This document shows positions 939-8,124 of a stretch of 42,050 nt of DNA, piece after piece. The DNA lies in IMG/VR virus record IMGVR_UViG_2609459854_000002; one strand, written 5' to 3'. Each line of letters opens with the position of its first letter. Position 1 is the stretch's first letter. Both the position numbers and the translations under genes were made by a program. Below the pieces are notes generated by a model. That model had not been told where the DNA came from. It was given only the letters and a program-made list of their open reading frames with translations, and did no database searches. The DNA is from a virus (lineage: Duplodnaviria > Heunggongvirae > Uroviricota > Caudoviricetes).

Positions 939-2048
939 CTAACTACACTTCGCAGTTAATTTATCACCTCTAAACTTTCTCCAATAACCTCTTATTATTT
1001 TATTTGAAGGCACTTCTATAACCTTGAATGAGATTATTGATACAATAATAGAAACCAATAAAGAAAATGCTATATACATTAACATCTCACACAAATTATC
1101 AGTGTCAGGGTTTAATATCTTAGTTATTACCTGTATTATCATCCAATGGAAAATGTAAAATGAGAAAGAGGCTTCACCAAGCAAAACCATAAATCTATTT
1201 TTAAGTATCTTAGATAAGACGCCACCATTAAAAGCAAATGCAATAACTATAAACGCCATGCAAGGGATATATAGAACATCATATTTTATGTTCATATATG
1301 TGATATAGTTTGTTGCTACATATATTGTCAAAAACAATGACAACACCGATGCGATCTCAAGTATACTGCAAACAGTATAGTTGATTTTTACATCACTATT
1401 AATAAACACCCTACAGATCAGCATTCCTATAATGAAATCGCCAATTCTAAATGATGGATTTATATAAAACAACCAATGCTGTGATATAGCTGATGGTGGA
1501 TTAATTAAATAATAAAAATTAATCGCAAGCACAAATAATAGCACACAAGTTAAATGCTTTGTCTTTAGCCTTGTTAATAAGCAAAATGCAACGTAGAAAA
1601 ACATCTCACATGAGATGCTCCATGAAACGGAATTAAAGGAAAAGTAATAATCCTGTAATGGAATAAATGATTGTAGTAATAATATATTTGAAATAAGCAT
1701 TCCATTATTAATACCATCAATACCCTTACCATGCATAAATATTAAAATAAAACAAATAAGCGCCACTATATGCACAGGGAATATTCTTGCAATCCTGTAT
1801 ACAATAAAATCTTTATTGCTAAATCTCTCTTTTTTTATATGATTTGTGAAGCTATAGTTTATAATGAAACCTGAAAGAATGTAGAAAAACGTTACACCTA
1901 TGTAACCGTTAAAAAAATACTTTGCCGCAGTATTAAACATACCAATAGATGATTGAGATAATAACCCAAGGTGACTAACGAAAACACCAAGGGCTGCAAA
2001 CATTCTCAACGATGTAAGACTTTGAATTATATTGCCTTTATTATTCAT
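939..2048 (-). CDS. Acyltransferase family 3 integral membrane protein (O-antigen acetylase-like lysogenic conversion candidate)
   Basis: 369-aa ORF, visibly AT-rich relative to neighbours; many hydrophobic segments; N-terminal region LTSLRMFAALGVFVSHL resembles the conserved start of acyltransferase-3 (Oac-like) proteins. Family call from memory. Confidence 0.7.
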   Translation of the reverse strand: MNNKGNIIQSLTSLRMFAALGVFVSHLGLLSQSSIGMFNTAAKYFFNGYIGVTFFYILSGFIINYSFTNHIKKERFSNKDFIVYRIARIFPVHIVALICFILIFMHGKGIDGINNGMLISNILLLQSFIPLQDYYFSFNSVSWSISCEMFFYVAFCLLTRLKTKHLTCVLLFVLAINFYYLINPPSAISQHWLFYINPSFRIGDFIIGMLICRVFINSDVKINYTVCSILEIASVLSLFLTIYVATNYITYMNIKYDVLYIPCMAFIVIAFAFNGGVLSKILKNRFMVLLGEASFSFYIFHWMIIQVITKILNPDTDNLCEMLMYIAFSLLVSIIVSIISFKVIEVPSNKIIRGYWRKFRGDKLTAKCS

Positions 2049-2118: not shown

Positions 2119-3915
2119 TTAGAACTCCTTCACATCTGCGCCAGAAGACACGCTCCAGATCGAAACAGGCGACCCGTTTACACCTATTAACCTTGCTTTC
2201 AACCCATTTCCGCTTGCTCTTGGTACGGTTAAATTTGCAACAGATGGATTTATAGCCCAATCTCCACCATTTAATATGACACTCATTTCAACTACGCCAC
2301 CATTATCAATATCTATTATAGGTGTTTGCACTACCGGGCTTTGTTGATCAATTGGCAGAAAGCCATTGACAATAATAGATGGTCTGAATGATGGGTTTCC
2401 CTGAACGCTAACACGAAGTTGCCCACCCTTAACAAATTCTGTTGCACAAGTATTCATGACAATGCAATACGGATTTACAAAATCAAATGCATAGCAAATT
2501 GACTCCCCATCCATTGGCGTGCAGTTTTCAGCAGTACAATTGGTCATGGTAGTATATTGCATTCCTGACATTCTAAATGACAACTGGTAACCGTTAACCT
2601 GAACAAGGCGCATATCCATAGAAGTGCCTATTACTTTTATTTGACCATCCCTAAAATCTTCAAATAAAACTCCAGCATATCCTTTCCCTGGATATTGTGG
2701 GAAACCGACCATTTCCATTACGCCAGAGAACGGCACATAAGAGAAGCATCCGATATAAGCACATTCAAAAATTGACTGTCTGATAACTGGTGCTGCTGAT
2801 TTTCCTAAAAACAGTCCGTAATAATTTCTATAAGAATCTACGTTTTCTTGTGTTAAGCCAAGCCTTCTAAACATGCAGTTTTCAACTCTACCGTTAACAC
2901 AAAATGAACTCATTGAGTTATCTGTTAGATCCCATTGCTTTGGTATAAAAGCACATAATGCATCCACCTGAAGAATTACTTCTCCATTTTTTGTGAGATC
3001 TATTTTGTCATTTGTTGTTTTATAAAAAACTGTCGCTTCAGCCTTTCCCTGTCCTCTAATTCCCATATTGTCATAAATTGGGATTGTTTTTGATGTATTT
3101 ATGTTTCCAGCAGGAGCCTCTAGAATGCATTTGTTTGAGCGGGCAAAGTTAGTTGCAAGAGTTATAGCTGTTGCGTTATCTGTGACTCCGTCAGGTTTCA
3201 CCCCCCAAAATTGCATGTCGTAAGTGGTAAAATTAATTCGTCTCCATACCATCGTTCCAGTTTCTGGCTTGATTACAATTCCACCATCATCAGCCCACGC
3301 CTGAATGTTATCAACAGACTCGAAAAAGCCGCCACCAAGGTGGTTTTCAGCATGTGTAGTGCTAGCTGCTGATGCTACGTATACAATCTGCCCCGCCTCC
3401 TCTGGAACACAGGAGCGAAGCTCTGAAAGATTGAGAAAGCGGCCAATAGCGTTAAATCCTGTTTTATCAATTAATGAATCATGTGTAGCTTTCAAGATCT
3501 CCAGCTCAATCTTTACGGTTGTGCCTCCATAACCAACCAGAGATGCGCCATCAGGGCCAGAAAGCTCAGCCCTTAACTGGTCTGGAGAATATTTCAGTAG
3601 ATCAGGATAATAGAATTGTTGTGCGCCATACGCATCATATACAGCCATGGAGTGATTCTGTACAGTTACGAACTTGGCAATCTGTCCGTTATATACCGGA
3701 TATCCAGCAGCGTTAATGATGATTGGTTGAGAAACAGGAACGTGCGAGCCGTCTTCGTTCTCTACATAAACCTGAATCTGGTTTTCTGGATTTACCGGGT
3801 CAGTGTCAACCTGACCGATATAAATTTTGCCATTGGCTACGGCTTTAAAAGAACGCGCCATAGTGAAGAGTTGCGAAGGCATCGATACGATCACATTGGC
3901 TGTAATGTCTGTCAT
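2119..3915 (-). CDS. Tailspike protein (P22 gp9-like head-binding domain, distinct receptor-binding body)
   Basis: 598-aa ORF; first ~110 residues ([59 protein letters not shown]...) closely match the P22 tailspike N-terminus as I recall it; the remainder does not match the P22 endorhamnosidase domain. Confidence 0.85.
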
Positions 3916-4015
3916 TTAATTTGCTCCAGATACAAGGAATCGCCGCAGCATGGCTACGGTGAATTTTGGGCATAAAAAAACCCAGCCGAAGCTGGGTCGT
4001 TGCGTTGGTTATCTG

Positions 4016-4507
4016 TCAGTAGTTATGTACTGAAGGAGGTAATTCTTTATTCTTAAGTCTCATCCATGCGGAAAGATTCGTTGGTCCGTCTGGCTCATTA
4101 ATATCAACATCTCGTGTGTGGTTTATTAAAACGTCTCTCGCCATTCCGATAACATACGAGAATTCATGACCGTAGTCGTAGCATCTGCCGGAATAGTTCG
4201 ATTGAATTTGTTTTAATGCCGGATACAGTTCGCGGAATAATGCCTGTGAACGGTTAGCATAATCCCATAGCCATACAAGGCTGTTTGCTTCTTTTGCAGA
4301 AAGCTCGTTGGTTTTCTTCTCTTGTTTGCCGATGAACTCACCTTCAAGCACTACCCTGTGGATGTACTCTACGGCCAGCGGGATTTGTTCAATTGAAAGT
4401 TCATCAATGCTGTCAATACCAAAACGCTGATGAACCATATTGTATGCATCGTCATAGCGAAGTCCTTTCTTTCCTAAACAAAAAACCCACCTGACGGTGG
4501 GTTTCAT
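4016..4507 (-). CDS. Hypothetical protein (start uncertain; possible internal start near 4438)
   Basis: 163-codon ORF; its first ~10 codons are the terminator hairpin at 4475..4504, so the true start may be the in-frame ATG at 4438, which lacks a clear SD. No family recognised. Confidence 0.45.
4475..4504 (-). terminator. Rho-independent terminator-like hairpin after the 322-aa gene
   Basis: On the minus strand AACCCACC gtca GGTGGGTT followed by TTTTTTGTTT, immediately downstream of the stop codon at 4510..4512. Confidence 0.55.
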
Positions 4508-4509
4508 AA

Positions 4510-5478
4510 TTAGATTTCTGGTTTCATTCTTCCGAAAACCTTTTCTATTCCTTTTTCGTATTCTTCTCTTGTCTCACTCATCGCTGCGACACCAAGAAGC
4601 TTACCGATATGCTGACGCAAAGCCTTGACACCAATTTCAGAAAGGAACAGATGCAACTTATCAGATTGTTTTCCGTTCTCGTCTCGGCTGGCTCGAATCT
4701 GTTCAAGGATTTTACCTTTACTCTTTGCTAGCGGGGTGTATATCTGCATGTTGGTTAGCTGCCCAAAACGAATAGGCCGTCCTTTCTCTGGCCTATTCAG
4801 GCCGTACAGTCGATACCACTCCTCGTATAGCTCATCTGGAAATTCCTTTTCATATTGACGAGCCTCTTCACGAACAAACGCTTTGAACTCGTCAATGACA
4901 GCCTGAACTTCTGGACGATAACCAGCAAGCGCATACGCAACCCCCTTAATTCCCGCCTTAGCGGAGGCATTAATAAGTCTCTGTGCTGCGGCGGCTGCCT
5001 TTAACCGTGATTGTGGTAGATCGTCATTATCTTTGGCTTCTATTAGTGCCCTACCAATATCAACAATTGCTGTAATGTCATAACCTAACGCTTGATGAAC
5101 GGTTTTAGACTTCGAAGTAAGTTGAAATTTATAGGGATTTTCCATTTTTCGCTGCAATTCTAGATCTCGGTATTTGCTCATATACTGAGCGCCAAGCAGT
5201 TGATCTAAATCCCTGGCATGTTCACCAATCCCTAGCAACTGAGATAATCCAGTTTTCGTAACAACGACAGTTTTCGACTCGTCATCCAGTACATAACATT
5301 CAGCATCAATGCCAAAATCATCTAAAAAGTTACCACGATGAGTTGCCCTGAGAATCTTACTTTTCCATCTTGCAGCAGCTGCTTTCTTTGCTATTTCAGA
5401 ACGCTGCTCTTTAGTCAGCGACTTTGCGCGAGCGATCCCGCCCTTAGCTTTCCCTTCGCCACTTTTCTTTTCAGTCAT
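4510..5478 (-). CDS. Hypothetical protein with lysine/alanine-rich N-terminal region (possibly P63C-domain-like; unverified)
   Basis: ORF in track 4510..5541; first ATG in frame at 5478 ([38 protein letters not shown]...). Occupies the position of the arc-ant genes of P22 immI between gene 16 and tailspike. Confidence 0.5.
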
Positions 5479-5634
5479 AATGCAAGCACCTTTGTTGTGA
5501 TGTATGCTTGCATTATATACACTGTACACACATACAAGCAAGCATAAAACTAAAACAAAATGCTTGCATTACAACCGCGCTACTCCAACTACACATTATC
5601 ATCTGGTATCCTGCTCAAAACTAAGGAGGTTGGT
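5479..5634. promoter_or_regulatory. Divergent control region with repeated palindromic operator-like motifs
   Basis: GCTTGCATTA-type motif read three times (5481..5490 minus-strand sense, 5505..5515, 5561..5570) plus a related CAAGCAAGCAT at 5535..5545; lies between the divergently oriented genes 4510..5478 and 5635..5964. Confidence 0.5.
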
Positions 5635-5964
5635 GTGCTTGAATGGTTTCTGTTGGCTGCATTAGTCGTTTCTGGTTTGGTGTATGAGTATCGAATGCAC
5701 TCTCTAACAAAAAAAATAGGAATTCTAGAAAACGAATATTGTGCTCTCAAATCCTCACTGGAACGTGAGCAAGGGGACTTAAAAATCTCTCTGTCTAGCA
5801 TTGAGCGTTCTATAGAGAGCTTAGAGGATAAGGTTGATCGTATAAAGAATGAGGATATTCATGATATTAAGGACGACATATCCTTCTTAAAATCTTGGTT
5901 GAAAAATGTTGGGAAAATTGCCACATCAACACGAGATAAGCTCAATCCATCCATGGATGACTAA
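5635..5964 (+). CDS. Hypothetical small membrane-anchored coiled-coil protein
   Basis: GTG at 5635 preceded by AAGGAGG (SD); an alternative ATG at 5560 lacks an SD. Predicted N-terminal hydrophobic helix (LEWFLLAALVVSGLVY) followed by charged heptad-like sequence; AT-rich; converges tail-to-tail on the gp16-like gene. Confidence 0.4.
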   Translation: MLEWFLLAALVVSGLVYEYRMHSLTKKIGILENEYCALKSSLEREQGDLKISLSSIERSIESLEDKVDRIKNEDIHDIKDDISFLKSWLKNVGKIATSTRDKLNPSMDD

Positions 5965-8124
5965 TTACTCCTGTGCCATTCCGCTTAGCGATGCCACAAT
6001 TCCAGCTCTTGCTAAACGCTGGAACCCTTCGTTTCCTAGTGCCTCGCGTATTGCTTTTACGGCGGCCTTATTTGCCATAAATCTGCGTTCCGCCGCCGCT
6101 AATGCTTCTTTACTTCCGCCTGCTCTTACTGCTTTGGTGGCTTCCTGAACAGCTTTCTCTATCGCATATCGGCCACTACGTGTGGTGGCAATTTTAGATA
6201 CAGCGCCTTTTAACCCAGCGCCAACTAAAGCACCCGCGGCAGCGCCTGCAATACCCCCTCCAGCGCCACCAACAATGGCACCTGATGTTGAGTTGGCAAT
6301 TGCATTTAACACTGTTGATGTGACGTTGGATAAACCAGCATCCAGATCGCGTAGTACATTGGCAGTTCTCCCTGTTCTTTCAATATACTGCTGAGGTTTC
6401 ACTGCTGCTCTTGCAAGAGTGCCATATGCATCAGCAATTCTTCCGAGTTCTGAGGAATATCTGCTAATGGCTTTTACATTTTGTGGGGTAAGTATCCTTG
6501 CGATATGGTTAATTCCTGCTGCATCAGCTTTGCCACCACGTACACCATGCGAGATAGCGTCTTGCAACATTGATGATATAGCAGGAACACGCTCTGATTC
6601 TGGCAGCGCGCGGATCATAGAATGGAATCCAGCAGGACCATTAAGACCTTTAGCTGACGATGATTGAAGGGATTTTACTCCATTCGTAATCAGTGCATCT
6701 GTTGCCAAATCACGCCCGAAAACAGACTCTGCACTCTCTTGTGCTGATAACCTCGCTTTAGACAGATCATTAGCTTTCTGCCAGTCATCAAGAAATCCGC
6801 CGTTTTCCGCCATTGTGCGCATATCATCAGTAATTGCCCGGCGTATTTCCCCTGCTCTCCTTGCCGCATTTGCCTCTCCGCTACGCTTATATTTTTGCTC
6901 CGCATCAGCAAATTTCGCTCTCCATGCTTTCATGCCATCAAATGTTACTCCACCTTGATTGTTTGCCTGAACAAACTGTTTCATTTCAGGAGTAAGCGGT
7001 ATGCCAGCAGATCGCTCTGCCTGAATAACGGCATTACCATTTAGCATTCTTGCTTTTTGATTTGGCATTGTTGACCGCACGTCATCCCATGCCGCGCGCT
7101 CGGCATCCTTCATCTGATCAAGATTTTGAAGAATCCTTTGTTTTATAGCCGCACTTTTTTCTGATGCCGTTCCAGATGCGGCCCCAAATTCATCAAGGTT
7201 TCGACTTAACTTTGATGATATTTCGTTAAATGCTGCCTGATGGGCGTCCTGAACAATTCCTGGTGTTGATGCCAATGCGCCTTCGGCTTGTGCAATTCCA
7301 CGACTTCCAGATCGCATTCCTGGTGTTAATGCGTTTATATCAATTCCAGCAGACTCAGCCGCTTTTGCTACATCTTCGGACACATTAGCAGCCTGACTGG
7401 CAATTGACTGACGCCCAGCACCTGACTTTGCCATCCTGGAAACATCATTAGCAGAATTCAGTGCTGTACCACCAAGAGCCTGTGAAACCCTTGGCGCAAT
7501 AACGCGCCCGACACCTGAAAGAACGCCTTGAGCACCAATATTGATACCACCGTTAATGGCAGCATTTTGTGCAAAATCGCCCTCCTGATTTGCAGCATCA
7601 GCAAGAGAACCTGCAATCATGTTTCCTGCGGAACCGATGTCTCCTGCGAGCTTTGCTGGCGCTCCAGCAGCTTTTGCCGCTGTGCCAATTGGCAGGAGAT
7701 ACCCACCAATTGTTTCACCGGCTTGCGCGTAAGGGTCTGTCGGTCGATCGACTGGACGATAGACATCATCCAATACTTTTGGCCCACCAAGCCCCTGACT
7801 GATTGCATTAATCAGACTTGCGCCACCCTGCAATACGTCAAATGGTATGTTTACCAGACCACGACCAGCCTGTTCTGCAATTTGCCCTGCACTTTGACCA
7901 CCAGTGAGCCAATCGCCAGCTTGTTGCATCAATGATGGTTCTTCTTTCTGCTGCTGAGGCGGAGGGTATGCTGCATAAAACTGATCTCTTGCTTCAGCCC
8001 ATTTGTCACCAGCCTTAGGGGCAACAACCTCATCAAAATATTGCGCTTGAGCCTGTGCTTTCTGTTCTTCAGTTAACGCCTGATACTGTGGAGAGGCGAT
8101 AACATCTTTCCATGCTTTAGCCAT
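5965..8124 (-). CDS. Ejection (DNA transfer) protein, P22 gp16-like
   Basis: 719-aa Ala/Gly/Gln-rich ORF at the end of the gp7-gp20-gp16 series; assignment by synteny and composition. Confidence 0.7.

Follow-up and report, generated by a model that had tools for sequence, protein, structure and literature searches.

A probable mosaic of three separately inherited modules, including a self-contained P63C cassette, in the 'ant moron' slot of a P22-like prophage

Overview

The region described here (positions 4016-5964) belongs to a P22-like (Lederbergvirus-type) prophage, IMG/VR record IMGVR_UViG_2609459854_000002, whose whole sequence of 42,050 nucleotides is called the window in the following and whose late operon is located on the minus strand. 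It is flanked by a gene 16 homologue (5965-8124, minus strand) and the tailspike gene (2119-3915, minus strand; Pfam Head_binding, E 6e-65), which confirms its placement, in an earlier sequence-only reading, at the sieA/immI position between the last ejection-protein gene and the tailspike gene. Three open reading frames (ORFs) are present exactly where that reading had put them: an ORF of 163 codons (4016-4507, minus strand), a gene for a 322-residue protein of the P63C family (4510-5478, minus strand), and a homologue of HK620 hkcB (5635-5964, plus strand). We conclude that the region is probably (probability roughly 0.6) a mosaic of three independent modules, because sequence in common with HK620 begins only at 5604, the P63C module stops at its terminator in four contexts, and the third ORF is a deletion remnant of the antirepressor gene ant.

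In P22, the interval between gene 16 and the tailspike gene carries sieA, ORF59, mnt, arc, and ant, and this slot is known as the hypervariable 'ant moron'; among sixteen phages, ten different arrangements of its genes were counted (Villafane et al. 2008, PMC2629481). The variability of the slot across P22-like phages, proposed as a check for a cargo hotspot, had thus already been described. The locus is a further example of this mosaic slot, made up of one remnant, an already known orphan gene that takes the place of sieA, and a gene from a large, uncharacterised family; it is in itself an ordinary case, and one of the three 'genes' is debris. Its wider interest lies in P63C, a very large family which recurs in the slots of rexAB and bstA and has neither an assigned function nor a relative among solved structures. 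What is new for this family is a testable anatomy, in which an N-terminal motif of 30 residues goes together with a conserved array of palindromic sites.

The P63C cassette and its control region

As judged from sequence comparisons, the central module is a self-contained single-gene moron of about 1.1 kb (4478-5603, minus strand), composed of a site array with a predicted promoter, the P63C gene, and a terminator, with boundaries defined by comparison. It is classed as a moron because it has a predicted promoter and terminator of its own and is present or absent between otherwise syntenic phages: it is absent from HK620, P22, and Kapi1, occupies the same slot in 611R6, EC28, and others, and at least 80% of it occurs in 46 of 5,426 complete Escherichia coli genomes. 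The 3' end is formed by the rho-independent terminator of the P63C gene (4482-4505, minus strand; 10 pairs, loop of 4, T-run), which is the strong hairpin with U-run previously noticed between the P63C gene and ORF 4016-4507, and directly beyond its T-run the flanks diverge in the window and in loci L001, L003, and L004.

At the 5' end, the predicted P63C promoter (TTGCTT, an 18-nt spacer, TATAAT) lies within two inverted pairs of ATGCAAGCAT-type sites, listed here on the minus strand. Site 1 (ATGCAAGCAT, 5560-5569) forms an inverted pair, across a 14-nt spacer, with site 2 (ATGCTTGCTT, 5536-5545), which contains the -35 hexamer TTGCTT (5536-5541). Site 3 (ATGCAAGCAT, 5504-5513) overlaps the -10 hexamer and the inferred transcription start (~5505) and is separated by 14 nt from site 4 (GTGCTTGCAT, 5480-5489), which overlaps the Shine-Dalgarno region and ends 1 nt before the P63C ATG. 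The four sites, with centre-to-centre spacings of 24, 32, and 24 bp from site 1 to site 4, cover the -35 hexamer, the -10 hexamer with the start site, and the ribosome-binding site of the P63C gene. The -10 hexamer (5512-5517, minus strand) is a perfect TATAAT, and the aligned upstream regions have kept TATAAT, or a hexamer close to it, at the corresponding place; the automatic promoter scan missed the promoter because its -35 hexamer has only three of six matches.

The three copies of GCTTGCATTA reported in the sequence-only reading are real, two of them being exact (ATGCTTGCATTA at 5504 and 5560) and the third, on the other strand at 5478-5489, having one mismatch. Its related fourth motif at the hkcB start (GTGCTTGAAT) travels with hkcB, HK620 having GTGTTTGAAT in this place, and is no part of the array; the actual fourth site is AAGCAAGCAT (5536-5545), and only one site, that at the P63C start, abuts a start codon, instead of two. 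The 8-mer core TGCAAGCA occurs four times in 42 kb, against 3.85 expected by chance, and three of the four copies fall within 88 bp, a clustering for which a Poisson estimate gives a probability of ~1e-4 anywhere in the window. The control region as a whole (5478-5571) is an imperfect dyad with 34-nt arms that are 76% complementary, as if a single unit had been copied in inverted orientation and had diverged into the leader with sites 3 and 4 and the segment with sites 1 and 2.

With P63C homologues of 58-100% protein identity the four-site array was found in at least 35 distinct upstream regions, all four sites being conserved; across the 35 regions the 14-nt spacers within the pairs are conserved in length but not in sequence, and the flanks are unrelated. 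The array accompanies P63C with or without a divergent gene. CI-type repressors with a Peptidase_S24 domain make up 11 of the 27 distinct upstream neighbours of array-bearing P63C genes, and tRNA 3' ends or ant-moron genes are found among the others. The earlier suggestion of operator control over one cassette is therefore upheld in that the repeats look like operators, but the array belongs to P63C alone and the three modules are separately inherited.

A LexA-box-like sequence, TTGT-N8-ACAG (5520-5539), is located in the promoter spacer; scored with a matrix built from a list of LexA sites, it reaches a sub-threshold 10.5 bits (training sites, 12.5-27.1 bits) and ranks fourth of 42,031 positions. 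LexA control was not upheld for this window, because the box scores lower than genuine sites do and roughly half of the loci lack it. At the same place, boxes of at least 12.5 bits (12.9-16.5 bits) are present in 9 of 35 aligned upstream regions (L030, L032, L047, L057-L060, L063, and L074), which hints at an SOS input in a subset of P63C cassettes. Canonical LexA boxes (e.g. ACTGTATATAAATACAGTA) also occur ~100-170 bp upstream of P63C in L051, L073, and L074, and in the last of these the neighbour of P63C is an ImpB/MucB/SamB-family (UmuC-like) gene, which places the cassette beside SOS-regulated cargo. An Rfam scan of positions 3500-6500 gave only sub-threshold noise.

The P63C protein and its family

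The 322-residue product of the cassette matches Pfam PF10546 over residues 199-286 (E 6.8e-14; 52.7 bits, cut-off 26.1) and phrog_2384, annotated as 'unknown function', over residues 6-321 (E 1.7e-104), and an identical protein is labelled 'P63C domain-containing protein' in RefSeq. It is composed of an N-terminal basic motif (residues ~10-38), a confidently modelled alpha/beta domain (~43-150), and a helical region that includes the Pfam P63C domain (199-286). The AlphaFold2 model has a mean pLDDT of 73.6, with values of 84-93 over residues 41-120 and 131-170. The family is large, with 1,682 matches in one search and 3,325 clusters at 50% identity in a wider one, and the full architecture of ~320 residues is conserved across Enterobacterales and beyond. 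The Pfam model covers residues 199-286 only and includes neither the architecture of the whole protein nor its N-terminal basic motif or the cis site array; none of these three features was found in the papers searched that mention P63C. Searches of the literature for P63C, PF10546, hkcB, RefSeq accessions, and PHROG identifiers retrieved no functional study. The domain is reportedly named after the C-terminus of p63 of Myxococcus phage Mx8 and is said to have been defined in the 2002 survey of Bro-N/KilA-N-associated domains by Iyer, Koonin, and Aravind.

The profile and structure searches recommended earlier thus recovered a Pfam family for P63C, an ant remnant, and phrog_5962 for HkcB, but no solved structure resembling P63C. 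The three genes that had seemed unassignable are now matched to P63C, ant, and HK620 hkcB. PADLOC and NCBIfam gave no meaningful match for any of the three window proteins. Comparison with predicted viral structures yielded weak matches of P63C, none of them significant (best E 1.4e-3; named matches with probabilities up to 0.97 and low TM-scores), which are enriched for Bro-N, 'Ant N-terminal', and KilA proteins. Bro-N, KilA-N, and ANT domains were not detected in a Pfam scan of 34 members of the P63C alignment at E up to 10, and hhalign of the alignment against two Ant proteins showed no relationship. Fusions of distant P63C members to ABC_tran, Nramp, and RelB were set aside as apparent chimeras that had arisen in gene calling or assembly.

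In Escherichia coli a second P63C allele (L086, P0088) is 54% identical overall; its promoter array and first ~34 residues are identical and its body has diverged, which shows that recombination has occurred inside the P63C gene directly after the N-terminal motif.

The members of the family are carried by phages of Proteobacteria, Actinobacteria, and Firmicutes and recur in a limited set of surroundings. They are located directly downstream of the immunity repressor gene cI in ST104, SI8, Midgardsormr38, Kuwabara, and Javan515, whereas Pkon1, L001, L004, L086, and L108 have them next to Arc/Arc/KilA-N or mnt-arc-ant modules. In DC1 and Barco they are found near the integrase gene, and in 933W in the nin region beside roi.

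Co-occurrence of the N-terminal motif and the site array

The N-terminal basic motif, GGxARAxxL(T/S)xExRSEIAxKAAxxRW, occupies residues ~10-38 of the window protein, and among the homologues compared the array was found only where the P63C protein has this motif. ST104 orf23, at 29% identity, is preceded by the same four-site array as in the window, and a metagenome contig (L087) likewise has four sites upstream of its P63C homologue. The likely true ATG of ST104 orf23 is situated 37 nt downstream of the annotated start (L089 position 3954, within 3917-3956), right after site 4. Other distant homologues with the motif have related inverted half-sites (GCAAGCAT / ATGCTTGC) upstream: abutted palindromes (GCAAGCATATGCTTGC, twice) are present in Paracoccus phage Pkon1, ATACTTGC-N4-GCAAGTAT upstream in Gordonia phage Kuwabara, TTTGCAAGCATG at the start codon in Gordonia phage Barco, and ATGCTTGC-N10-GCAAGCAT upstream of P63C in L107, a second metagenome contig, and Burkholderia phage DC1 has kept the motif together with related half-sites upstream. 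Where the motif has diverged, in 933W L0095, a different repeat, ACGTGCA, is found in three copies. None of the four motif-less homologues (Streptococcus Javan515, Salmonella SI8, Erwinia Midgardsormr38, and L105) has repeats upstream; they sit directly behind the preceding gene, which in three of the four is a repressor gene.

The motif was also found in free-standing proteins of 40-70 residues, two of them adjoining P63C genes, and may be a mobile mini-domain. Free-standing proteins of 70-77 residues which end in the motif, in the form GGxARAxxLTxExRxEIAxKAAxxRW, were seen on metagenome contigs at L101 1501-1713 and L102 97-309 (both convergent with a P63C gene) and at L107 166-399 (directly upstream of a P63C gene).

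From this co-occurrence we infer that the N-terminal motif is a putative DNA-binding module and that the P63C cassette is negatively autoregulated. In the mechanism proposed, P63C would bind the four ATGCAAGCAT-type sites via its basic helical motif and repress its own transcription, which would hold P63C low and constant in the lysogen at any place of insertion, the silent late operon included; the motif-less relatives would reach the same end by their position directly behind cI.

The ant remnant and the deletion junction

The earlier treatment of 4016-4507 as an independent gene did not survive comparison, since Pfam, PHROG, and DNA identity to Kapi1 all mark it as a C-terminal remnant of ant. 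The ORF matches Pfam P22_AR_C (PF10548; E 2.4e-30) over the entire profile (1-73 of 73), and phrog_245 ('anti-repressor Ant') only at profile positions 162-292 of 319. Kapi1 ant is 98.6% identical to window positions 3902-4476 at the DNA level, and the homology stops exactly at 4476. The segment 4016-4476 (minus strand) accordingly represents the last 153 codons, stop codon included, of an antirepressor gene of the P22/Kapi1/Emek type, and residues 11-163 of the ORF correspond to the C-terminal half of Ant. The 163-residue frame is an accidental fusion of this half to 10 codons from the terminator stem: its ATG, located 2 nt past the P63C stop codon, and the first 10 codons lie inside the terminator hairpin. 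This ATG is not a conserved start, because it is missing from the terminator copy of L004, whose stem reads TTTTATAA.

Neither the N-terminal domain of Ant (P22_AR_N, or a KilA-N-type domain according to the RefSeq label of Emek Ant) nor the native start or the arc-ant control region was found at the locus. In E. coli EC28 the P63C cassette is 100% identical, and behind it come two small ORFs, then mnt, arc, and an intact ant gene. By this arrangement the window is a deletion derivative from which ~1.8 kb is missing: both small ORFs are gone, as are mnt, arc, and the 5' half of ant. The same comparison maps the deletion junction to 4476-4479, where an internal part of ant meets the 3' end of the P63C module. 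A search for exactly this junction in 5,426 complete E. coli genomes and in 107 loci gave no match, and HK620 and strain 2018-10-1CC have other, independent deletions of the ant region. As the deletion took mnt, arc, the 5' half of ant, and the part in which sar would be encoded, sequence comparison shows 4016-4476 to be a dead remnant and the functional immI to be gone. A terminator-like hairpin with a T-run behind the ant stop codon (3979-3998, minus strand; 8 pairs, loop of 4), the equivalent of tANT, has been kept upstream of the tailspike gene, and at the same relative place the HK620 annotation records a terminator 'associated with remnant of P22 ant gene'.

The hkcB module

The third module begins at 5604 and is considered apart from P63C because homology to HK620 extends only from this position onward. 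It starts with a leader and ribosome-binding site (5604-5634, plus strand; AAGGAGG at 5623-5629), which is also found ahead of hkcB in HK620 and ahead of different genes of this slot in other prophages, and continues with an hkcB homologue of 109 residues (5635-5964, plus strand) that begins with GTG and is convergent with and abuts gene 16. The GTG preceded by the strong AAGGAGG is the start used by HK620 and some RefSeq records; other RefSeq models of hkcB (134 residues) start at an ATG at 5560, inside site 1 and without a ribosome-binding site, and are probable start-codon mis-annotations.

The protein is 98.2% identical to HkcB of HK620 and 50% identical to the alleles of CUS-3, epsilon34, and SEN22, and it belongs to phrog_5962 (E 1.9e-61), annotated as 'unknown function'. 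The AT-rich character and the membrane-anchored coiled-coil features noticed earlier were borne out as predictions: the GC content is 0.38, compared with 0.47 for the window, and a hydrophobic N-terminus (Kyte-Doolittle 1.94 over residues 1-17) is followed by heptad-like spacing. Matches of HkcB to DpdH, SMC, and Rz1-type proteins were dismissed as coiled-coil noise. The stop codon of hkcB (TAA, 5962-5964) directly adjoins that of gene 16 (TAA, 5965-5967, minus strand), leaving neither a base between the genes nor a terminator, so that late transcription would run antisense through hkcB and hkcB transcription antisense into gene 16.

In P22, sieA has the identical position and orientation, tail to tail with gene 16, and by this arrangement hkcB is a positional analogue of sieA. 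In CUS-3, hkcB is the last gene of a leftward operon beginning with mnt. The divergent gene beside the P63C cassette of L038, in the same position, has the SieA signature FNRYPGEARKFNK, the motif being taken from Leavitt et al. (2024, PMC10883804). L006 and L034 have secreted CWVV-motif proteins in the hkcB position which are preceded by the same leader, AAGGAGG, and GTG start, and because a different coding sequence follows this common segment, a recombination joint appears to lie at the start codon; further CWVV proteins are encoded divergently from the P63C cassette in L030 and L048. Position thus suggests that hkcB may encode one of several interchangeable envelope proteins of the slot and a candidate injection-blocking exclusion protein. 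HkcB would then be an exclusion protein like SieA that is fitted to HK620-type ejection proteins, and these in part evade SieA of P22.

Neighbouring genes

Directly past the tailspike gene, an Acyl_transf_3 gene (939-2048, minus strand; GC 0.30) is probably a lysogenic-conversion gene of the O-antigen acetylase type at the prophage end, and a host PEBP-family gene (1-477) adjoins it.

Possible role of P63C and rival explanations

The most likely role of P63C would be an accessory function expressed in the lysogen, e.g. defence against other phages, a tentative view suggested by the slots which the family occupies. It is favoured over an antirepressor function because a place behind cI or a self-regulated promoter would give steady expression in the lysogen. 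The superinfection-exclusion or defence idea of the sequence-only reading agrees with the positions of hkcB in the sieA slot and of P63C relatives in the rexAB/bstA slot.

Several observations weigh against parts of this interpretation. The argument for autoregulation is a correlation across about 13 lineages, and the half-site hardly varies across very distant hosts, which limits covariation and would also fit a conserved factor other than P63C. The N-terminal helices of P63C are modelled by AlphaFold2 at low confidence (pLDDT 55-66) and match no Pfam DNA-binding family, and no clear GCAAGCAT repeats were seen upstream of the stand-alone motif proteins. For defence, the argument is one of position: PADLOC returned no family for P63C at E up to 1, no informative domain fusions were found, and no similarity to SieA or BstA was detected, the comparison of P63C with BstA giving an hhalign probability of 1.9% and a BLASTP E value of 0.82. 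In addition, the P63C terminator lies inside the late operon upstream of the tailspike gene, so that the cassette could affect tailspike expression, and no convincing sigma-70 promoter for hkcB was found by scan or manual reading.

That the three ORFs form one accessory system, antirepressor-like or for exclusion or defence, under a shared divergent operator region, as the sequence-only reading had it, is now very improbable and largely refuted by the comparative data. The ORFs are adjacent in the sieA/immI slot, the P63C stop codon and the ATG of the ant remnant are 2 nt apart, and site 1 precedes a -10-like TATCAT (5597-5602) of the hkcB strand by ~45 bp, which in principle could let P63C act on hkcB as well; yet the three parts are separately inherited, ORF 4016-4507 is a deletion product with a terminator between it and P63C and with an ATG that L004 lacks, the array occurs with P63C where no divergent gene exists, and the exact junction was found in 0 of 5,426 E. 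coli genomes. P63C might instead, though this is rather unlikely, regulate lysis and lysogeny as a member of the Bro-N/KilA-N/Ant class, e.g. as an alternative antirepressor or a DNA-binding switch component. The enrichment among its weak structural matches, the repeated neighbourhood of immunity modules (cI, mnt-arc-ant, and roi in 933W), and the SOS-like boxes of some loci would be in line with it, antirepressors being typically under tight control. The protein, however, has no sequence or profile similarity to Bro-N, KilA-N, ANT, or P22_AR_N, and the cassette survives in the window although immI is deleted. Moreover, the motif-less homologues of SI8 and Javan515 appear to be co-transcribed with cI, because there is no room for a terminator or a separate promoter, and a place directly behind cI, apparently on the same transcript, would be paradoxical for an antirepressor; the antirepressor-like idea put forward earlier is weakened to this extent.

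The site array also admits other readings than binding by P63C. A factor of the host, or one of the prophage other than P63C, with a CytR-like regulator or LexA at the spacer box as candidates, could bind it and place P63C under host physiology, which we consider quite unlikely. The half-site is nearly invariant across proteins of 51-100% identity, as a conserved host factor would have it, and the nine upstream regions with LexA-like boxes of at least 12.5 bits point the same way; the CytR half-site, GTTGCATT, resembles CTTGCATT. However, the same half-site occurs in phages of Paracoccus, Burkholderia, and Gordonia, whose hosts would need one regulator in common with enterobacteria, the array is present exactly with the N-terminal motif and changes where the motif diverges (933W), and about half of the loci lack the LexA-like box, which in the window is sub-threshold. 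It is extremely improbable that sites 3 and 4 act as a hairpin in the 5' untranslated RNA which sequesters the ribosome-binding site, even though the two could pair over 12-nt arms with 100% complementarity and the Shine-Dalgarno region is overlapped by site 4. The sites are better regarded as DNA elements, because the promoter is preceded by an identical motif pair, sites 1 and 2, and because a start at ~5505, as expected from the TATAAT at 5512-5517, leaves site 3 outside the transcript; the half-sites of the Paracoccus phage, furthermore, abut as DNA palindromes, and no Rfam match was obtained.

Comparison with known systems

The 'ant moron' as described for HK620 (hkcB, hkcC, and degraded ant/mnt; PMC2629481) is the closest counterpart of the locus: the slot is the same, hkcB is homologous, and a degraded ant gene adjoins its terminator. 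The P63C cassette is not discussed in that paper, and the deletion endpoint of the window is different and apparently unique. Of P22 immI (mnt-arc-ant and sar RNA), the window keeps the 3' 461 nt of ant and the terminator, whereas the intact relatives EC28 and phage 611R6 have mnt-arc-ant right beside the P63C cassette; the repeated motif of the window is unrelated to the mnt-arc-ant module and belongs to P63C. P22 SieA (Leavitt et al. 2024, PMC10883804) and HkcB are alike in position and orientation, and for HkcB a membrane anchor is predicted. They differ in that HkcB has one N-terminal hydrophobic segment and a coiled coil and is not multi-pass, and in sequence: BLASTP gave no alignment between the two at E up to 100, and the SieA motif FxRYPxEAxxFNK was not found in HkcB.

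The accessory genes linked to cI, such as lambda rexAB, and the HK97 gp15 moron resemble the P63C cassette as units of promoter, gene, and terminator in or beside phage operons for which expression in the prophage is expected. Genes of the rexAB type rely on the repressor promoter, whereas the logic of P63C appears to be negative autoregulation by the cargo protein.

The nearest working analogy for P63C, as far as sequence features allow a comparison between proteins that are not homologous, is BstA, the abortive-infection protein of prophage BTP1, whose short cis DNA element aba spans the gene start and confers self-immunity on the carrier of bstA; the cI-N interval in which bstA resides is a recognised hotspot that is also home to rexAB (Owen et al. 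2021, PMC8585504). P63C and BstA are each a lone prophage protein, ~310-320 residues long, with an N-terminal domain of nucleic-acid-binding type (predicted in P63C) and a second domain, both are located downstream of cI in P22-like phages (for P63C, ST104 orf23 and others) and have a terminator of their own, and both have a short cis DNA element with repeats just upstream of and at the gene start, the P63C array lying upstream and abutting the start codon. The two differ in that aba consists of direct CCCGCC repeats and the P63C sites are palindromes, and in that the window cassette is located in the late operon and not behind cI. By this analogy P63C might, though we hold it to be on the whole unlikely, be a BstA-like abortive-infection or replication-interference protein, and the array both an operator and a cis 'self' mark like aba, which would be read by the N-terminal motif and would spare the carrier phage on replication. 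If this were true, the P63C family with its 3,325 clusters would represent a large unrecognised class of defence genes of lysogeny modules, and GGxARAxxLxxExRSEIAxKAAxxRW would be a new minimal sequence-specific DNA-binding module.

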